Part shown: positions 1,839 to 63,298 of the stretch, in pieces
Layout of the letters: each line of letters begins with the position of its first letter
Position numbering within the stretch: the stretch's first letter is position 1
IMG/VR virus record: IMGVR_UViG_3300046660_000239
Location: 3,155-67,154 of that record
From: a virus
Direction: 5' to 3' (one strand)
DNA: 64,000 bases
Translations under genes and position numbers: made by a program
Notes under the pieces: generated by a model
Told to the model about the DNA's origin: nothing
Database searches by the model: none
What the model saw: the letters and a program-made list of their open reading frames with translations, nothing else

Positions 1839-2128
1839 GCTGCTCCTTCCGTTGGTGTGTTCCGCTTCAGCGGACGACGCTTGGTGAAGTCGACCGGGAT
1901 GACGTTGTCATCCACGGGCTGCTTGGTGGCGGTCGGCGGCGTAGGCACGTCGTCATCATCGATGAGGTCAAGCTCCCATTCGTGGAACTGCAGAACCTCC
2001 AACGAAGGCGACACCCGGACGAGGACGATGCTTCCCATGAAGCCGATGACGATGCCGAAGACGTTGGTGTTCATCTTGTGCTCGACGACGTCGCCGATGC
2101 CGATGCAGTCACAATCGGTGCAGCTCAT
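1835..2128 (-). CDS. Hypothetical protein
   Basis: Stop/start overlaps with both neighbours. Confidence 0.7.
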   Translation of the reverse strand: MSCTDCDCIGIGDVVEHKMNTNVFGIVIGFMGSIVLVRVSPSLEVLQFHEWELDLIDDDDVPTPPTATKQPVDDNVIPVDFTKRRPLKRNTPTEGAA

Positions 2129-2472
2129 GCCGCCACCTGCAATTCAAGGCCGGCGACCAGAAGTTCGCGCGCCGACGGCTCGACCTCCGCAACGTCAAGA
2201 GTGGGGATGCGTTTGACAGACACGGGAACGACGCCACTCCAAGTGGAGCAGCCACCGTTGTGCGGCGTCATCTGGGTGGTAACGTTGGGATTATTGTCGT
2301 TTGCCGCCGAGACGGATGGTTTTGGAAAGTGGCCTGGGCCGAACTCTCTCCGTAGGCGCTGGTAAACGGTAATCGGCTTGAGGCGATATCTGGTCGCAAT
2401 GCTGGCGTTGCTTTCGCCGCTCAGTCTGCGCGCATGCATATCGGCCAGCATCTCGCTGGTAATGATTGTCAT
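2125..2472 (-). CDS. Hypothetical HTH-like protein, first gene of the leftward early operon
   Basis: ATG 2472 behind CACCACAGAGGAGAC; SNASIATRYRLKPITVYQRLRR looks like an HTH. Confidence 0.7.
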   Translation of the reverse strand: MTIITSEMLADMHARRLSGESNASIATRYRLKPITVYQRLRREFGPGHFPKPSVSAANDNNPNVTTQMTPHNGGCSTWSGVVPVSVKRIPTLDVAEVEPSARELLVAGLELQVAA

Positions 2473-2542
2473 ATTGTCTCCTCTGTGGTGATGTCGGCAA
2501 AACGGTGAACTTGCCAACCGACTGTCATAGTGTTATCGATTT

Positions 2543-2555
2543 ACAAATTTGTCAA
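2543..2555 (-). promoter_or_regulatory. ACAAATTTGT palindrome overlapping TTGACA (-35) of a leftward promoter
   Basis: One of nine exact copies of the 10-mer. Confidence 0.7.
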
Positions 2556-2570
2556 AGTGTAGCGGTGAAT

Positions 2571-3179
2571 ATGGCCCCCTCTAAATCAAGATTCGCGCAG
2601 ATGCTTGCGAACGAACAGACCAAGCAGGGCCTGACCGATCGCGAAGTGGTTGCGAAATACGACTGGCTGCAGCAAACGTTCAGCCGGTGGAAGAGTGGTA
2701 GCTTGCCGCGGCAGCACATGTTCGCGTCCATCGGCCAGTTTCTTGGCGTCAGCACGGAAGCGGTTGCCGAGCTTGTCGAAGAGGCGTCCGCAAGCACTGG
2801 CAACACGAAGCTTGCCGCAGCTTACGGCGGCGTCAAGATTTACGGCAAGGTGACCGACCGCAAAGCCGGCAAGTATGTGTTCGAAGCGTTCAACCAAGGA
2901 CGTAAGCGCATCCCCGAAGGCCGGTATGCTATCCTCGTGGATACGAAGGTCATGGAGCCGGCGCTGTTGGTCGGTACGAAGGCATGGCTGGATCCAGCCG
3001 TCTGGCCGAAGCCTGGCAACGAGGTGATGGTCCACGCCAAGGGCGGCGTTGCCTGGCTGGGGCGGCTGGTGTCGTTGGCTGACGCGCTGGCAACCATTGA
3101 GGCTGGCGGAAAGGAGATGACAATTCGAGACGTTGAGGCTGTGCATGTCATTGTCCTTTCTGAGCGCGTAGCTAAATAA
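2571..3179 (+). CDS. XRE-HTH transcriptional regulator with degenerate S24-like C-terminal domain (repressor 1)
   Basis: GLTDREVVAKYDWLQQTFSRWKSG HTH; YAILVDTKVMEP...GNEVMV resembles the S24 fold, with the catalytic Ser apparently lost. Confidence 0.75.
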   Translation: MAPSKSRFAQMLANEQTKQGLTDREVVAKYDWLQQTFSRWKSGSLPRQHMFASIGQFLGVSTEAVAELVEEASASTGNTKLAAAYGGVKIYGKVTDRKAGKYVFEAFNQGRKRIPEGRYAILVDTKVMEPALLVGTKAWLDPAVWPKPGNEVMVHAKGGVAWLGRLVSLADALATIEAGGKEMTIRDVEAVHVIVLSERVAK

Positions 3180-3183
3180 TAGC

Positions 3184-3213
3184 TTGACAAATTTGTAGCA
3201 TGTTTGGTAGACA
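3184..3213 (+). promoter_or_regulatory. Rightward promoter (TTGACA 3184-3189) overlapped by ACAAATTTGT (3187-3196)
   Basis: CTTGACAAATTTGT; -10-like TAGACA at 3208; no convincing ORF downstream. Confidence 0.65.
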
Positions 3214-3215
3214 TG

Positions 3216-3418
3216 CGTCGTCACTGTGGTGGTGATATCGAAATCCGGGATTAACGGCGCGGCCTAGCCAAGTCTCCTCTCCCGAGATAGTAGGAACTGC
3301 TTCTGCGAGCCTTTACGGGTGGTGCCGGCCTTCGGGTTGGCTCGCGGAAGCAGCTTTAGTCATCCAGCAAGAACGACAAAAAAACGCCTGCAGGCCTTAG
3401 CCAGCGGCGTTATTTTTT
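3216..3418 (+). ncRNA. Candidate structured sRNA with anti-CACCAC and anti-Shine-Dalgarno loops
   Basis: Promoter upstream, hairpin plus T-run downstream; 15-bp stem 3297-3311/3339-3353; cUUCGg tetraloop; G-U wobbles favour the + strand. Confidence 0.6.
3378..3418. terminator. Bidirectional intrinsic terminator
   Basis: A-run, ACGCC...GGCGT stem, T-run. Confidence 0.65.
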
Positions 3419-3449
3419 ATGTCGGCTTGTCGTTGAATTCGTTTCTCAT
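3417..3449 (-). CDS. Putative 10-aa peptide MRNEFNDKPT
   Basis: GAGGAGGGG 5 nt before the ATG; terminator immediately after the stop. Confidence 0.35.
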   Translation of the reverse strand: MRNEFNDKPT

Positions 3450-3508
3450 TGTAACCCCTCCTCGAATTGGTGTTCCTATAAAAAGGGAAAGCCGCCTTGG
3501 CGGCGGCT

Positions 3509-3583
3509 TCATCTTTTTCTCGGCGGCCCTCGGCCTTTCGGTGCAACTCTTCTTCTGTCGTGGTCTTTCGCGTTATGCCGCAT
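3509..3583 (-). CDS. Putative 24-aa basic peptide MRHNAKDHDRRRVAPKGRGPPRKR
   Basis: GGAG 7 nt before the ATG; followed by hairpin AGCCGCC-GCCAA-GGCGGCT and a T-run. Confidence 0.4.
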   Translation of the reverse strand: MRHNAKDHDRRRVAPKGRGPPRKR

Positions 3584-3818
3584 GATCATTCTCCAAATTG
3601 GGGGTTGTCGAGAATTAGTACCCTGTGAAAATCTGAGGCTGACCGCCCCGGCTGAAACTCTGTACCGCTTTTATAATGCCGCCTAGCTGACCCGTTCGGC
3701 GCCTTGTCTCTGCTTACAGGATTAATTGCTATAGGTTATCGGTTTATAGGTCAAGAGGATTATCTTGCCAATGGACACATAAACTGATAACTAGTTGAAA
3801 AATTACGGGATAAATTTT

Positions 3819-4550
3819 ATGAGCAAACTTTCAGAGCGCCTTACTTCGCGAGCCGCCGAACTTAATATTTCACAGACTGACCTGGCCGCTCGTGTGGAGA
3901 TGTCACAGCCGAGCATCAGTGATTTGTTCGCTGGGCTGACCGCCTCCCCGAAGAAGTGGAAGGAGATCGCCAGGGAGCTGCAGATCGACGAAAAGGAGAT
4001 GCTGGCCCTTATACAGGACGCCATTGTCGAGGCTGGCAAAACACAACGCATACGCCGAACGATAACCGGAGCGCTGGCCGCCCTCGAGGATAGCCTTGAG
4101 CCAAACGGCACGATAGATCCCGCTCCGGTATCGGTATTATCAGGAAAACCAACGCGCATGCTCCCCGTCTTGGGCGAAGCGGTCGGTGGCGACGACGGAC
4201 AATATGCATTCAACGGCCAGATCCTCGACTATGTCGCCTGCCCGCCCTCGCTGACGAACGTGCCGAACGCCTATGCCGTCTGGATCGATGGCGAGTCGAT
4301 GTATCCGCGCTATAAGTCCGGCGAGCTTGTATATGTGCACCCAGGCAAGCCGCCGCGGCGCGGTGATGATGTGATCGTGCAGATAAGGCCCAGCGAGGAG
4401 TACATGCCGCCGCGTGGCTTCGTTAAAGAGCTCGTCGGCTATCTCGGCGATAAGCTGGTGCTGAAGCAATACAATCCTGACAGCCGAATCGAATTCCCGC
4501 GAGAAGACGTTATAAGCATCCATCCTATAATTTTTTCTGGAAAATATTGA
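3819..4550 (+). CDS. CI-like repressor (XRE HTH + S24 autopeptidase)
   Basis: ISQTDLAARVEMSQPSISDL HTH; AYAVWIDGESMYP (catalytic Ser) and FVKEL (catalytic Lys). Confidence 0.92.
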   Translation: MSKLSERLTSRAAELNISQTDLAARVEMSQPSISDLFAGLTASPKKWKEIARELQIDEKEMLALIQDAIVEAGKTQRIRRTITGALAALEDSLEPNGTIDPAPVSVLSGKPTRMLPVLGEAVGGDDGQYAFNGQILDYVACPPSLTNVPNAYAVWIDGESMYPRYKSGELVYVHPGKPPRRGDDVIVQIRPSEEYMPPRGFVKELVGYLGDKLVLKQYNPDSRIEFPREDVISIHPIIFSGKY

Positions 4551-4634
4551 TTTATAGGTTGACTCGCTGAACCTATAATCTTATACCTCTCCTCACAGCC
4601 GCACCATGGCTGGGCACCACTTGAGGAGACCGAC

Positions 4635-4832
4635 ATGCTCGGCAGAAGATTTATCGACCCGGAAGATCACGTACCGCTGGCTATCGCGGCTGGCAGCGCG
4701 GAGCCTTTCCGCAAGCCCGACCACAAAGCAAAACGCCACCCGAAGCCGCGCAACGTAGATTGCCGCGGCCGCTTTGCGTTGCGTCACCAGAAGCCCGGCC
4801 GCGTGCTGGCTGAGATGGGCGGTGATGAATGA
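4635..4832 (+). CDS. Hypothetical protein
   Basis: CACCACTTGAGGAGAC leader and ATG. Confidence 0.7.
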   Translation: MLGRRFIDPEDHVPLAIAAGSAEPFRKPDHKAKRHPKPRNVDCRGRFALRHQKPGRVLAEMGGDE

Positions 4833-5403: not shown

Positions 5404-5688
5404 TGAACCGCGCCGACCTCGACGACGACCGCATCACGCTCCGCAGCTTTCTTTATGACGCGCTCGCCGCCATATCTGCGGGTGGCTTCGTCGCCGCCGT
5501 TTCCATCTGGCTGCCGTACATCGTGCAGCATCAGTAATTGCCCAAGGGCAATAGAGCGCGGTCGGTGATGATGGCTGCAACTATTCGTTTTCGTGCCGCG
5601 CTCTAGCACATTCGCCCAAGCCGATTACGAATCCCGCATTCTCTCCGCTCTCGCCTAACCACCAACCACCACCACAAGAGGAGACACT

Positions 5689-5898
5689 ATGACCAACGAT
5701 ATCAGACCATATAACGGCACAGGCACCGAAGTCGTCGACAGCCTGACGCCAGCCACGGATATTCCCGCAGGCAGACTGGCCGCCGTTGCGGACTGGCATA
5801 GCCAGTCGAGCAAGCGAGCACGCCGTCACGCAACGATCGCCAGCAAGCTGCGCGAAGTCGCAAGGATGATCGCCAACGACAATCGTGTGCAGCCATGA
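5689..5898 (+). CDS. Hypothetical protein
   Basis: CACCACCACAAGAGGAGAC leader. Confidence 0.75.
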   Translation: MTNDIRPYNGTGTEVVDSLTPATDIPAGRLAAVADWHSQSSKRARRHATIASKLREVARMIANDNRVQP

Positions 5899-7449: not shown

Positions 7450-8203
7450 GACGCTGACTAAGGTTTGCACGAAGTGCGGCGAGGCGAAGGAGCTAACAGC
7501 GTTTCACAAAGACCGCAGCGGAAGATTTGGTGTAACGACGAGGTGCAAGGCGTGCACAAAGCTGGCAGATGCAGAAAAATTTGCCAGAGCTGCGCATGGA
7601 GTAGCTGACCGAGTTGGGTGTAAAAATCCAACGGCATGTAAGGCAAAAGGGGCTAGCACATGCCCTCCTTGCACGAGAGCTAAGTTGTTTGCAGACCCTC
7701 ACTACGTAGCAAAGATGAATAATGCCCGCAACGCTGTGATGGCGACGGAGGAATATAAGATTGCAGCATCGAAACGCATGGCCGCCCTCTACGGGGATCC
7801 GGAGTTCGCCGAGGCAAATCGGCGGCGATCATCTGAGCGGCTAACGAGGCTTAACGAGAATCCAGAGTTTCGCAAAAAATCCAGCGATAGATTCAAGGCG
7901 CTTCACGCCGACGATAGATTCTCGGAGGGGCTAAAGGAGCGAGCGGCGCTTCAGATGAAGGCCCTTTGGGAAGACGTGGACTTCAGAAAATCCGTAGTCG
8001 AGCGAACCAGAGAGATGAACGCCGATACTGATTTTCAGAAAAGGCGAATAGCGGCAGTCAAGATCTACCACCAAAACCGCCGCGAAAATGAAGAGTTCGA
8101 TGCGTTCATGGAGCGCATGGAAGCCGAGGCCGCCGAATGGGAGGCCGCCAACCAAACCACCACAGAAGAAGGAGACTTAAATGGCACCAGTGATCCAAGA
8201 TAA
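7439..8203 (+). CDS. Zn-finger protein with NUMOD-like helical repeats; no nuclease domain seen
   Basis: CTKC...CKAC; repeats such as DPHY, DPEF, NPEFRKK, DVDFRK, DTDFQK. Confidence 0.7.
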   Translation: MQDETLTKVCTKCGEAKELTAFHKDRSGRFGVTTRCKACTKLADAEKFARAAHGVADRVGCKNPTACKAKGASTCPPCTRAKLFADPHYVAKMNNARNAVMATEEYKIAASKRMAALYGDPEFAEANRRRSSERLTRLNENPEFRKKSSDRFKALHADDRFSEGLKERAALQMKALWEDVDFRKSVVERTREMNADTDFQKRRIAAVKIYHQNRRENEEFDAFMERMEAEAAEWEAANQTTTEEGDLNGTSDPR

Positions 8204-10528: not shown

Positions 10529-10576
10529 AGCAGTCTCCTCTTCGCGGTGATGGTGAAGAGGAGACTACTGTTTCCT

Positions 10577-10589
10577 ACAAATTTGTCAA
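10577..10589 (-). promoter_or_regulatory. ACAAATTTGT operator / TTGACA promoter
   Basis: Exact motif copy. Confidence 0.7.
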
Positions 10590-13558: not shown

Positions 13559-13959
13559 GCCGCCACCCGCTGGTCAGTGATGATGTTTTCGGAAAGGCGG
13601 CGCATCGTATCGACTAGCGGATTGACGAAATCCACTTCGATGCCGTTCTGTCGACCGAGCTCGATGACGTCGGAAAGCGCCGTCATGAACTCCTTCATGC
13701 GGGTTTCATCCGGCGACGGAAGCGCGGCTATGAACGCGTCCATCTTGCGCAGGATCTCGGCAGGCGTTTTGCCCTTCACCCACTCGTACTTGCTGCCGTA
13801 TAGAGCGCTCTTGTCTTTCCAAGACATATAGCCCTGCAGCTCCTCGTTGCCGCGGATATCGAATTCCGCTTTCGGTTCGCGCAGTCCTTTAGCCGACATG
13901 GACGCAGGCATGGCGTTAATGCGCTTCTGTACGTCTTCTATGGTGGTTGGCTTGGTCAT
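13555..13959 (-). CDS. Hypothetical protein, paralog of 845..1237
   Basis: Shared C-terminal half; ACCACCACAGAGGAGAC leader. Confidence 0.85.
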   Translation of the reverse strand: MTKPTTIEDVQKRINAMPASMSAKGLREPKAEFDIRGNEELQGYMSWKDKSALYGSKYEWVKGKTPAEILRKMDAFIAALPSPDETRMKEFMTALSDVIELGRQNGIEVDFVNPLVDTMRRLSENIITDQRVAA

Positions 13960-14020
13960 TTCAGTCTCCTCTGTGGTGGTAGTGGTTGCCGCCGATTGGT
14001 GGTCGGCGGCAGTGGCGTGG

Positions 14021-18820: not shown

Positions 18821-18977
18821 GCCTCCAGCAGTTTGGAGATGTGGCCAGCGGTTCCCGCTGTGGTCGGCGCATGGAAATATCTGCTCATCTTTGATCTCCT
18901 CTGCTGTGGTGGTGGTTTACCGACTGGAGCCGGCGGAACTAGTTGGTGGCTAGTGTTATTGACCTTGTTGTGGATTT

Positions 18978-18990
18978 ACAAATTTGTCAA
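18978..18990 (-). promoter_or_regulatory. ACAAATTTGT operator / TTGACA promoter of the accessory operon
   Basis: Exact motif copy just downstream of a terminator. Confidence 0.7.
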
Positions 18991-37670: not shown

Positions 37671-37694
37671 GCAAGGTGTCCAATCTCGCGTCCA

Positions 37695-37760
37695 GTTGTT
37701 GTATTCGGCAGGCGCCTGGACAGACGCTTTTCGGGAGCTACCCTAGCCGAACAACACAAC
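37695..37760 (-). ncRNA. Structured RNA upstream of the homing endonuclease, resembling c4-type phage antisense RNA motifs
   Basis: Outer stem GTTCGGC/GCCGAAT enclosing TAGGGTAGCTCCCGAAAAG and hairpin GCGTC-TGTCCA-GGCGC; the loop is complementary to two downstream TGGAC sites. Confidence 0.55.
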
Positions 37761-45721: not shown

Positions 45722-46669
45722 TTATGCCGAAACTTTATTTATTGCGGCCATGAGATCGTCGTTTGCGGCTATCAACTTAGCCTTACCAACTGCCCAAGCC
45801 TGGCTTCCGCGCTTGCCGTGCAACATGCCGATCGCGGCGGTATTCTGAGCCGTCTCCAGCGCGGCGATCGTCGCCCTGCTTTCTGGCTTCAGCGCATCGA
45901 TTGACTTGGCCCATACTTCTCGTTCGGTGATATGTCCGACGATGTCCTGCCACGCCACTGACCCGCTTTCTCCCTTGGTTGTCTTGACCATTCCGAGGAA
46001 TAGTTCAGTCGAGTTGCTCGGCTTCCACGGCATGGCCTTGTGGGCGCGCGTCCAGCTAACCTTCGCTGGGTCCGTGTTGGCCATCGCCTCGGCAAGCATC
46101 TTTCGCGATTCTTCAACCGTATAGTTCTTGTCTTTGGTTTTATCGCGCTCGCGCTTTGGCATCGAACGTGACCGCTTTGAGCCAAGCCACGACACAATGC
46201 GGGCGCACATGGCGTTTCGCTCAGATGTGTCGTCATCACCACCGAGCATGCGCTCTTGCTTCTCAGTCGCGCCAAGCATGGCGCCCAGTGGCATCCTGGC
46301 ATCGAACTGCGTTAGCTTGCCGTCTAGACCGTATGTGTATGCCTTTTCCGTATGCGTACCATTGCTGAACCGCACGTTTCCGATCCGGAGGATTGGACCA
46401 GGGATCATGCGGCCGAAGTGATCACTGTATACGTCTGGGCCGCGAACAACATCGGCTCCGAGGGTTTCATCAACAATGTCCGTGTCAGTGGGCCTGATAC
46501 GCAGTCTTCGCTCGACGCTCATTCCCATAATTTCTTCAGGGCTGTTGTCATTTGCCTCCACAGCGGACCAGTTGGTTTTCAACGTATCGATGGGTGCGTC
46601 TATTTCGGGCCTCTGCGAGTAAGCCTTCAATGCGCCGAGTTGCTCTGCGAGTGATGCGTGCCGTGCCAC
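45722..46669 (-). CDS. Hypothetical protein at the late-regulator position
   Basis: GTG start behind AGGAGAC; last gene before the late-operon leader. Confidence 0.75.
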   Translation of the reverse strand: MARHASLAEQLGALKAYSQRPEIDAPIDTLKTNWSAVEANDNSPEEIMGMSVERRLRIRPTDTDIVDETLGADVVRGPDVYSDHFGRMIPGPILRIGNVRFSNGTHTEKAYTYGLDGKLTQFDARMPLGAMLGATEKQERMLGGDDDTSERNAMCARIVSWLGSKRSRSMPKRERDKTKDKNYTVEESRKMLAEAMANTDPAKVSWTRAHKAMPWKPSNSTELFLGMVKTTKGESGSVAWQDIVGHITEREVWAKSIDALKPESRATIAALETAQNTAAIGMLHGKRGSQAWAVGKAKLIAANDDLMAAINKVSA

Positions 46670-46733
46670 TTCCGTCTCCTGCAATCGTGGTGGTTGGTGA
46701 TTGCAGGATATATGATGCTCACGGCGGAAAATA

Positions 46734-46746
46734 ACAAATTTGTCAA
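46734..46746 (-). promoter_or_regulatory. ACAAATTTGT operator / TTGACA promoter
   Basis: Exact motif copy. Confidence 0.7.
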
Positions 46747-46750
46747 CCAA

Positions 46751-46981
46751 CTACACCGAAGTGCGGCAAACCTTCTTCGTCTGCTGCTGGACGGTGCGCA
46801 GATAGACGCGCAGACCGTTCTTGAGCGGCGCAGAGACGTTGTTGCGTTCGGCGTCGTCCACGGCCTGCCATGCGTAGGCTTCGATGAAGCGCGACAGGGC
46901 GCAGTCAGACGAAACTACGGCTTGGGCGTTGGCGGTGGTTGCTGTGGCTATGATGGCTGCTGCGATAAGGATGCGGGTCAT
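46751..46981 (-). CDS. Small exported protein
   Basis: Signal peptide ending ANA-QA; CACCACACAGAGGAGAC leader. Confidence 0.7.
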   Translation of the reverse strand: MTRILIAAAIIATATTANAQAVVSSDCALSRFIEAYAWQAVDDAERNNVSAPLKNGLRVYLRTVQQQTKKVCRTSV

Positions 46982-47062
46982 GTTGGTCTCCTCTGTGTGG
47001 TGGGCCGCTAGGCGGCCGGTGTGGTCGTGTTGATGTGGTTAGCGCGAAAATGAGAACGTATT

Positions 47063-48901: not shown

Positions 48902-49369
48902 TTATTTTTGGAGCCAGCCCCTAACCAGATCCACACACATCGAAGCTGCATCGTTCTGGTTGTCGGCCTTCACGACTGCCTGGCGCGTGAAGCCGAGGCG
49001 CATAAGGTCTGCATGCCGCGCCTTCTGCTCGACGCTCAGCCGTCCCTCCTTGCCCTTCATCTCGATGAGACCGAGCTGGCCGCCGTCCATGTAAATCCGA
49101 AGATCGAAGGCGCCAGGGGTTATGCCAGTTGCCTTCGCCTTGACGCTCTCCTGCGCACTACGGCGAGCCGCGTTGAAATCGCCCTCCAGGTCGAATGTCT
49201 TACCGTACTCAGGCAGTTTCTTCAGGGCTGCTACTGCAGACGATTGCAACAGCCACTCCTCGACCGGCGCCGCGCTAACCTTCACGCTCGTGCCGGTCGC
49301 CGTGACGCGGGTGACGATGCGAACACGCTTGCCGTTCATGCGGGTGGTCTGTGTGGTGGTCTTGGCCAT
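48902..49369 (-). CDS. VRR-NUC-like nuclease
   Basis: E..LQ...G.TPGAFDL...IEMKGKEGRLS.EQK. Confidence 0.85.
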   Translation of the reverse strand: MAKTTTQTTRMNGKRVRIVTRVTATGTSVKVSAAPVEEWLLQSSAVAALKKLPEYGKTFDLEGDFNAARRSAQESVKAKATGITPGAFDLRIYMDGGQLGLIEMKGKEGRLSVEQKARHADLMRLGFTRQAVVKADNQNDAASMCVDLVRGWLQK

Positions 49370-49413
49370 GTCGGTCTCCTGTGGTGGTGAGTGGTTGGTT
49401 GGTGGGTGGAAGT

Positions 49414-63273: not shown

Positions 63274-63298
63274 GGTTGTCTCCTCTTGTGGTGGTCGG

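Follow-up and report, generated by a model that had tools for sequence, protein, structure and literature searches.

The phage RNAs closest to the one considered here are c4 of P1 and P7 and CI of P4, immunity-region RNAs that direct short looped seeds against a ribosome-binding site (RBS) region. Both are encoded in the leader of their own target operon and are released from it by processing; to our knowledge, phage antisense RNAs so far have one neighbouring target each. The candidate RNA lies on the plus strand at 3220-3418 of a 64,000-nucleotide stretch of viral DNA, called the window below, which takes up most of a terminally repeated virus record of 67,154 bp (IMG/VR record IMGVR_UViG_3300046660_000239, positions 3,155 to 67,154). 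A preliminary description of the window, made from its sequence alone, had likened this RNA to c4 and CI. The likeness holds for the way of working, looped seeds directed against an RBS region, and not for family membership: the covariance model of the Rfam C4 antisense RNA family does not match, the fold is different, and unlike the leader-derived RNAs the window RNA has a conserved promoter and terminator of its own. Instead of one adjacent operon it has about 13 dispersed predicted targets on both strands, the nearest of them 730 nt away on the opposite strand.

Rhizobial trans-acting small RNAs (sRNAs) such as NfeR1/alpha-r14 and AbcR1/2 carry anti-Shine-Dalgarno (anti-SD) motifs in loops. 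The window RNA resembles them in its C/U-rich unpaired anti-SD seed, its many predicted ribosome-site targets and the alphaproteobacterial hosts; it differs in being phage-encoded, in apparently targeting the phage's own genes and in two extra GUGGUG loops that would read a second, phage-private box. Rfam models of the alpha-r14 and AbcR type gave no match in the window, in the region 3100-3800 or in seven member loci. The logic is that of T4 RegA, a protein translational repressor that recognizes the initiation regions of many early mRNAs: one phage product would jointly shut down many early mRNAs, except that the reader here would be an RNA and recognition would occur by base pairing. Lambda OOP and P22 sar are cis-antisense RNAs, fully complementary to a single overlapping target; the window RNA is likewise a small phage RNA in the lysis-lysogeny control region, and is unlike them in its dispersed predicted targets. 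A review of phage sRNAs (PMC12197685) cites both OOP and sar.

As expected of a trans-acting sRNA, the window RNA combines a conserved, covarying structure and conserved unpaired seeds with an independent transcription unit that has its own promoter and intrinsic terminator. Judged by comparison among related phages, it probably acts as a trans-acting antisense repressor that pairs with boxed ribosome sites and occludes them, the repression itself being the part that we infer.

Architecture and family of the RNA

The RNA is predicted to fold into three helices, the third with two cap hairpins:

3220-3236, plus strand: P1 hairpin with the 7-nt loop UGUGGUG (3225-3231), seed 1
3243-3250 / 3280-3288, plus strand: P2, a long-range stem enclosing a variable hairpin (3261-3269) and seed 2
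3270-3279, plus strand: seed 2, AAGUCUCCUC, unpaired inside P2
3289-3296, plus strand: conserved single-stranded linker (U)AGUAGGAA, with AGTA-G invariant in alignment A4
3297-3311 / 3339-3353, plus strand: P3, a long stem
3316-3327, plus strand: P3a cap CGG-GUGGUG-CCG, with the loop GUGGUG as seed 3
3328-3337, plus strand: P3b cap GCC-UUCG-GGU

Across the family, P1 has 5-7 bp and an invariant 7-nt loop and is followed by a conserved UAUSGAA linker; P2 surrounds a variable hairpin and the unpaired GUCUCCUC and is followed by a conserved AGUASGAA linker; and P3, with 8-16 bp, bears two small cap hairpins, one of which displays GUGGUG. The P1 loop and GTCTCCT are each invariant in 28 of 28 sequences (alignment A4 set). 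In the fold of the window's own RNA, CUCCUC has a probability of being unpaired of about 1.

The covariation across related phages that the preliminary description had proposed to look for is present. In a model-fitted alignment of 35 distinct sequences, both sides have changed in three of the five pairs of P1, six of the eight pairs of P2 and all 15 pairs of P3, and the helices are paired in 94-96%, 69-72% and 87% of alignment cells, respectively. The closing pair of P3a switches from G-C to A-U in 6 of the 35 rows, and the P3b tetraloop is UUCG in some family members and GAAA in others. A MAFFT alignment, not fitted to the structure, pairs in 80.4% of cells, compared with 35.6-52.4% when the partners are slid by 1-3 columns; its covariation score of 0.416 (at most 0.163 when slid) was reached by none of 500 shuffles. 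RNAalifold applied to the MAFFT alignment recovered only P1 and P3a, the variable stems being misaligned; the structure was then supplied and its pairs were counted. Covariation supports P1, P2 and P3 with the two cap hairpins as the predicted fold.

All sequence elements named in the preliminary description occur where it had placed them, including TTGACA (3184-3189), TCAC/TGTGGTG/GTGA (3221-3235), AGTCTCCTCTCCC (3271-3283), the 15-nt arms of P3, CGG-GTGGTG-CCG, cTTCGg (3330-3335) and the terminator (3378-3418). Two of its helices did not survive comparison: the GTCGT/ACGAC closing helix, part of which would precede the inferred start, lacks conservation, and the CCTA/TAGG stem, also not conserved, is replaced by the covarying stem P2. 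Its view that the region holds no convincing open reading frame (ORF) agrees with the lack of conserved frames; a 13-codon GTG frame in the window, considered as a small ORF, is not kept in phage 16-3, and ARAGORN found no tRNA or tmRNA in the window.

Among deposited sequences, the window is closest to Rhizobium phage RHph_TM3_3_14B and to 16-3-group phages. Between the window and RHph_TM3_3_14B, the core of the RNA (3221-3350) is about 96% identical, while identity over the whole match is about 75%, divergence being much greater in the spacer of the promoter, in the 3' tail and in the repressor gene. An exact 19-mer of the core found no stretch in viral contigs. The three invariant motifs UGUGGUG, GUCUCCU and GUGGUG, combined into a gapped pattern, retrieved 32 viral and 8 genome stretches. 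A covariance model (R1) then gave exactly one strong match (E <= 2e-21) in each of the 39 member sources, and it had no match in five stretches of coding DNA that fitted the pattern by chance. The window itself contains a single copy. A looser pattern for the P3 cap matched 107 viral stretches; 54 new loci were searched with R1, and 22 were members. R1 was also positive in all three host genomes of the pattern matches; within one bacterial family, 151 genomes were sampled and six were positive, five of these with diverged versions.

Rfam, which the preliminary description had suggested consulting, contains no known family for the locus. At the gathering score, the only match in the whole window is int-alpA, elsewhere, and seven diverse member loci gave none; at E <= 10, the region 3100-3800 gave only chance-level matches (miRNA, snoRNA and leader families) and no C4. 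The int-alpA RNA (RF02996) is at 37689-37753 on the minus strand and scores 35.9 bits against a cut-off of 35.8. A literature search returned no paper joining phage 16-3 with antisense RNA, and titles and opening lines of abstracts on rhizobiophages and small RNAs held nothing relevant. The terms sRNA, ncRNA, non-coding and antisense do not occur in the main text of the AP-16-3 paper (PMC10460002), nor do Rhizobium, Sinorhizobium or Agrobacterium turn up as terms in a 2025 review of phage sRNAs (PMC12197685). The preliminary description had not recognized the system as one already described, and nothing in the literature searched contradicts it. By these comparisons, the window RNA is a member of an RNA family without prior description in that literature.

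A complementary signature at phage gene starts

The unpaired motifs UGUGGUG, GUCUCCU and GUGGUG are complementary to a signature of the form CACCAC-N0-10-GAGGAGAC-start codon. A search for CACCAC, 0-10 bases, GGAG(A/G), 3-12 bases and a start codon finds it at 13 distinct places in the window, each in sense orientation before an ORF. In 200 dinucleotide-preserving shuffles the mean is 0.24 (maximum 3), and control hexamers of the same composition give 0-2 boxed starts. The leader motif that the preliminary description had reported as shared is real: it stands at 13 gene starts, is specific to the phage and changes with the P1 loop. The boxed starts, none of which falls between about 19 and 46 kb, are:

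2470-2490, minus strand: start of the cro-like gene (2128-2472), box, SD and ATG, exact CACCACAGAGGAGAC
4615-4637, plus strand: predicted target, 65-aa ORF
5667-5691, plus strand: predicted target, 69-aa ORF
8158-8183, plus strand: predicted target, 123-aa ORF
13957-13978, minus strand: predicted target, 134-aa ORF, exact CACCACAGAGGAGAC
18886-18914, minus strand: predicted target, 23-aa ORF (doubtful gene), downstream of the promoter motif at 18978
46667-46692, minus strand: predicted target, 315 aa, phrog_36072, downstream of the promoter motif at 46734
46979-47002, minus strand: predicted target, 76-aa ORF
49367-49390, minus strand: predicted target, 155 aa, phrog_824 / resolvase-like, 12/12 with the P1 loop and 3' arm
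55822-55843, minus strand: predicted target, DNA methyltransferase gene
58282-58310, minus strand: predicted target, HNH endonuclease gene
58803-58825, minus strand: predicted target, 5'-3' deoxyribonucleotidase gene, downstream of the promoter motif at 58873
63271-63293, minus strand: predicted target, phage sigma-factor gene

The boxed sigma-factor gene (62779-63273, minus strand) belongs to phrog_1740, and its Sigma70_r2 match is just below the Pfam cut-off. Two perfect pairings had been claimed earlier, and both exceed expectation. The 12/12 match at 49379-49390 is one of three with at most one mismatch, where 0.12 are expected; the 10/10 match at 10532, 13963 and 58289 is among five exact occurrences, which include the RNA's own locus and one at 10557 on the plus strand, where 0.06 are expected. 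A profile of 8-mer complements peaks at the P1 loop and seed 2; GC-rich 8-mers elsewhere do equally well, and this noisy control was not used. At 10530-10566, adjoining the promoter motif at 10577, a copy of seed 2 and the TIR-like GAAGAGGAGACT form an inverted repeat of 12 bp without mismatches; the minus strand continues with a CACCATCACC box, followed by an SD and a TTG start. This repeat may be a cis anti-SD hairpin.

The signature extends to relatives. Phage 16-3 has 16 signature places, nearly all at annotated start codons, and its boxed genes include p072, p077, p078, p079, the sigma factor p086, p089, p096, p103, p106 and the major head protein. In 22 of 28 distinct member loci, the opposite strand has a boxed site between -716 and -819, and this site is conserved in alignment A3. 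In a 5.3-Mb host genome (G001), 11 of 13 signature rows lie within 46 kb adjoining the RNA gene; in a 7.6-Mb host (G003), all 16 are inside the 60-kb prophage around it; and in a third (G002), two of five are beside it. The pattern read backwards gave no rows in the hosts. Background is 0-6 scattered rows per genome in the 150 family genomes other than G001, a tally that includes one match in G081; in the RNA-positive G150, four of five rows cluster around its RNA gene. The signature is private to the phage and in three host genomes nearly confined to the RNA-bearing prophage.

The key argument for pairing is that loop and box vary together. Two complete proviruses have a P1 loop ending in GGUA(A)G rather than GGUGG, and they contain 8 and 12 rows with a TACCA box and five each with CACCAC. 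Three phages with the canonical loop have one TACCA row each, compared with 17, 15 and 19 CACCAC rows. The loop change from G to A in the two proviruses matches a change from C to U at the first box position of about ten dispersed genes. In a diverged member (G023), the loop is GGUUGGUAG and five of six sites have CACCAA or ACCAACC. Seed 2 of this member is GUAGCUCCUC, and in four of its five boxed GAGGAG sites GGAG is followed by CU or UU, in none of them by AC. Wherever seed 2 is GUCUCC, AC after GGAG is dominant; these two bases are not needed for pairing with 16S rRNA, and they are kept at most boxed sites genome-wide. As far as sequence can tell, a complementary signature that is specific to the phage and changes with the P1 loop is the expected sign of pairing with many dispersed targets.

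Transcription unit and genome setting

The preliminary description had placed the RNA on the plus strand, antisense to the leader motif, and the conserved promoter, the pattern of wobble pairs and a U-run after P3 uphold this. The transcription unit comprises:

3184-3189, plus strand: promoter -35 element TTGACA; TTGACAAATTTG invariant in five of five aligned phages
3187-3196: 10-bp palindrome ACAAATTTGT, overlapping the -35 element
3205-3213, plus strand: extended -10 element TGGTAGACA; TGGTA invariant in five of five aligned phages
3378-3418: bidirectional intrinsic terminator (A-run, GC hairpin, T-run), with the RNA end at about 199 nt

The spacer between TTGACAAATTTG and TGGTA varies among the five aligned phages, and the promoter pattern (TTGACA plus TGnTA) is found upstream of most family members. 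Its spacing places the RNA start near 3220, the first base of P1. The terminator hairpin is kept with other bases in RHph_TM3_3_14B, and a tail that is A-rich and has a GC hairpin is common to many members. In an Agrobacterium-type subgroup (L009/L044), a U-run adjoins the 3' end of P3 on the plus strand alone, so that P3 itself is the plus-strand terminator there. In the helices, 133 cells are G.U and 48 are A.C, a count from an alignment fitted on the plus strand and so somewhat favouring G.U. Folding is better than that of shuffled sequences on both strands (z -3.68 on plus, -3.60 on minus), and energy alone therefore does not choose between them. Taken together, the comparative data favour a plus-strand RNA that displays its seeds.

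The palindrome ACAAATTTGT, usually as TTGACAAATTTGT, has nine exact copies in the window (2543, 3187, 10577, 18978, 44670, 46734, 47575, 52570 and 58873), where 1.3 are expected with at most one mismatch. Four of them (2543, 18978, 46734 and 58873) are 40-70 nt upstream of boxed first genes. All five aligned phages have the palindrome in the switch region that separates the cro-like gene from the p070-like gene, and 16-3 has seven exact copies, co-directional with the downstream genes. In one subgroup it is placed between the -35 and -10 elements of the RNA promoter, which makes it separable from the -35 element and operator-like. It looks like a phage promoter/operator class, and the p070-like or the cro-like protein is suspected of binding it. 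The TTGACA/ACAAATTTGT motif is shared by the RNA promoter and the promoters of several target operons, and the RNA is therefore expected to be made together with its targets, with which it is probably co-regulated.

Four rhizosphere metatranscriptome runs of one study contain contigs about 95% identical to the RNA locus. These unstranded RNA-library contigs are:

3159-3913
3225-3489
3226-3527
3244-3570

Two of them begin at 3225 and 3226, within six bases of the inferred start, and the contigs as a whole are a weak hint of expression. Parts of the locus that the contigs do not cover are uninformative, and depth cannot rank genes.

The RNA gene stands within the following neighbourhood:

2128-2472, minus strand: cro-like first gene of the leftward early operon
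2571-3179, plus strand: p070-like helix-turn-helix (HTH) gene, with homologues annotated as XRE or S24-type repressor and as p070 in 16-3
3220-3418, plus strand: candidate RNA gene, directly 3' of the HTH gene
3819-4547, plus strand: C-type repressor with HTH_3 and Peptidase_S24

The HTH gene at 2571-3179 had no Pfam or PHROG match in the scans of window proteins. Its position relative to the RNA is constant across the family: the RNA is directly downstream of the HTH gene named p070 in 16-3, as seen also in 16-3 itself, NV1.1.1 and RHph_X2_25. The 16-3 record (L003) carries no annotation at the RNA locus (2990-3334). It does list an ORF, p071 (2364-2942, minus strand), that is wholly antisense to p070 and is probably a spurious annotation. 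Between the RNA and the C-type repressor of the window are tiny minus-strand ORFs and terminators. One ten-codon ORF, MRNEFNDKPT (3417-3449, minus strand), has a GAGGAGG RBS, a start that is kept in RHph_TM3_3_14B and an end within the shared terminator. A second bidirectional terminator-like hairpin occurs at 3489-3509 (region 3486-3510). Upstream of the C-type repressor, 3690-3818 is near-identical to RHph_TM3_3_14B amid diverged surroundings; it has TTATC/GATAA-like repeats and is probably where the C repressor's operators and promoters lie. The Pr annotated in 16-3 for its C repressor faces the RNA gene from the opposite side, across the bidirectional terminator. Read-through from Pr in 16-3 would be antisense to the candidate RNA and, as speculation, could be an unlocking device.

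Proposed mode of action and its alternatives

The proposed mechanism starts from an RNA of about 135-200 nt (3220-3418, plus strand) that 16-3-like rhizobiophages would have in their immunity module. Three unpaired motifs, namely UGUGGUG in the P1 loop, GUCUCCUC in the P2 strand and GUGGUG in the P3a loop, would pair with the CACCAC box and the extended SD GAGGAGAC. Pairing over the SD would block binding of the 30S subunit and lower the translation of about 13 genes together, possibly with mRNA decay or polarity as an added outcome, making the RNA the counterpart of a global translational repressor. Co-regulation with the targets would generate delayed negative feedback or a threshold. If the RNA is also made in lysogens, it would constitute an RNA layer of superinfection immunity, a role that is equally compatible with the data.

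Several observations weigh against this mechanism or narrow it. SD complementarity is generic, and the flanks of the P3a loop give no extra complementarity. A crude ranking by duplex energy parts boxed from unboxed starts weakly (-35.3 vs -31.8 kcal/mol; 64 crude gene starts, one-sided p 0.03), with energies that are unrealistic and ignore intramolecular structure. In the full-length fold of the window RNA, the 3' tail engages part of the P1 loop in pairing (mean probability of being unpaired 0.37), and the accessibility of the P3a loop is 0.39. The unstranded contigs run past the terminator, to 3489-3913, and one begins before the promoter, at 3159; they could include DNA or a convergent transcript. 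Only about three of the compensatory events are independent, and they come from phages related to one another. Seed 2 is compensated in one lineage and not in two: where the seed is GA-CUCC (G130/L106), one of nine boxed sites is able to pair, and where it is GC-CUCC (L110), none of six is, the preference for AC being lost in both without compensation. Extended seed-2 pairing is therefore not universal in these alignments, and what is kept in all is the predicted six-base core CUCCUC:GAGGAG together with loop/box pairing.

The lost seed-2 compensation would suit an RNA that is real and does not pair with the boxed sites at all, binding or sequestering a protein through its GUGGUG loops or serving as convergent antisense partner of read-through from the rightward promoter of the C repressor. 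The two near-identical loops recall protein-sponge RNAs, and Pr of 16-3 faces the element across the bidirectional terminator. A sponge, however, does not predict complementarity between loop and box, their phage-specific co-occurrence or their matched changes, and we regard this explanation as unlikely. Of quite low probability, too, is a purely local action, in which only the leader that begins the divergent cro-like operon, some 750 nt off, would be a true target and the other boxes a ribosome-site style of the lineage. That site is indeed the most constant neighbour of the RNA (22 of 28 loci; alignment A3), and the RNA is linked throughout to the p070-like/cro-like module; on the other side, the change in the P1 loop is accompanied by box changes at about ten dispersed sites and not just at the neighbour, and the AC after GGAG, needless for 16S pairing, is retained genome-wide.

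It is more improbable still that the element works on the minus strand or as DNA, whether as the decayed leader of a lost minus-strand gene, as a signal for antitermination or processing carried by the Pr transcript, or as a site bound by a protein. The minus strand folds nearly as well, and at 3217-3231 it resembles the leader with three mismatches. Against this stand the excess of G.U over A.C, with the bias of the plus-strand fit noted above, the conserved -35 and extended -10 elements that face the plus direction, and the U-run 3' of P3 in L009/L044, present on that strand only; moreover, the antisense ORF at 2840-3214 overlaps the repressor gene. Chance resemblance without function, which would draw on generic SD complementarity and nothing beyond, is scarcely credible: covariation over 35 distinct sequences contradicts it, as does the contrast between a core about 96% identical to RHph_TM3_3_14B and about 75% identity in the flanks and the repressor gene. 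Trans-acting antisense pairing remains the probable mode of action.

A more tentative proposal is that 16-3-like phages give some 13-19 phage genes a private code of box plus extended SD that is read by one RNA, and that the matched loop/box classes GUGGUG/CACCAC, GUGGUA/UACCAC and UUGGUA/CACCAA may act as immunity or timing specificities. If this is true, one small RNA would time the early programme and silence incoming relatives of the same class, and not those of other classes. In P1/P7 c4, seed sequence sets immunity specificity (PMC12197685).

The comparative data indicate that a single phage RNA matches a code found at no fewer than a dozen dispersed ribosome sites. The covariance model can be used to annotate this RNA in rhizobial prophages, and the proposed pairing is testable in a classical laboratory phage-host pair, for which the natural variants point to compensatory mutants. 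The long-studied 16-3 immunity system comprises immC, immX (by the 16-3 annotation) and avirT. If confirmed, the RNA would add a new layer to that system, in a stretch left unannotated in the 16-3 record, and would represent global RNA-based translational control of the early programme of a temperate phage.

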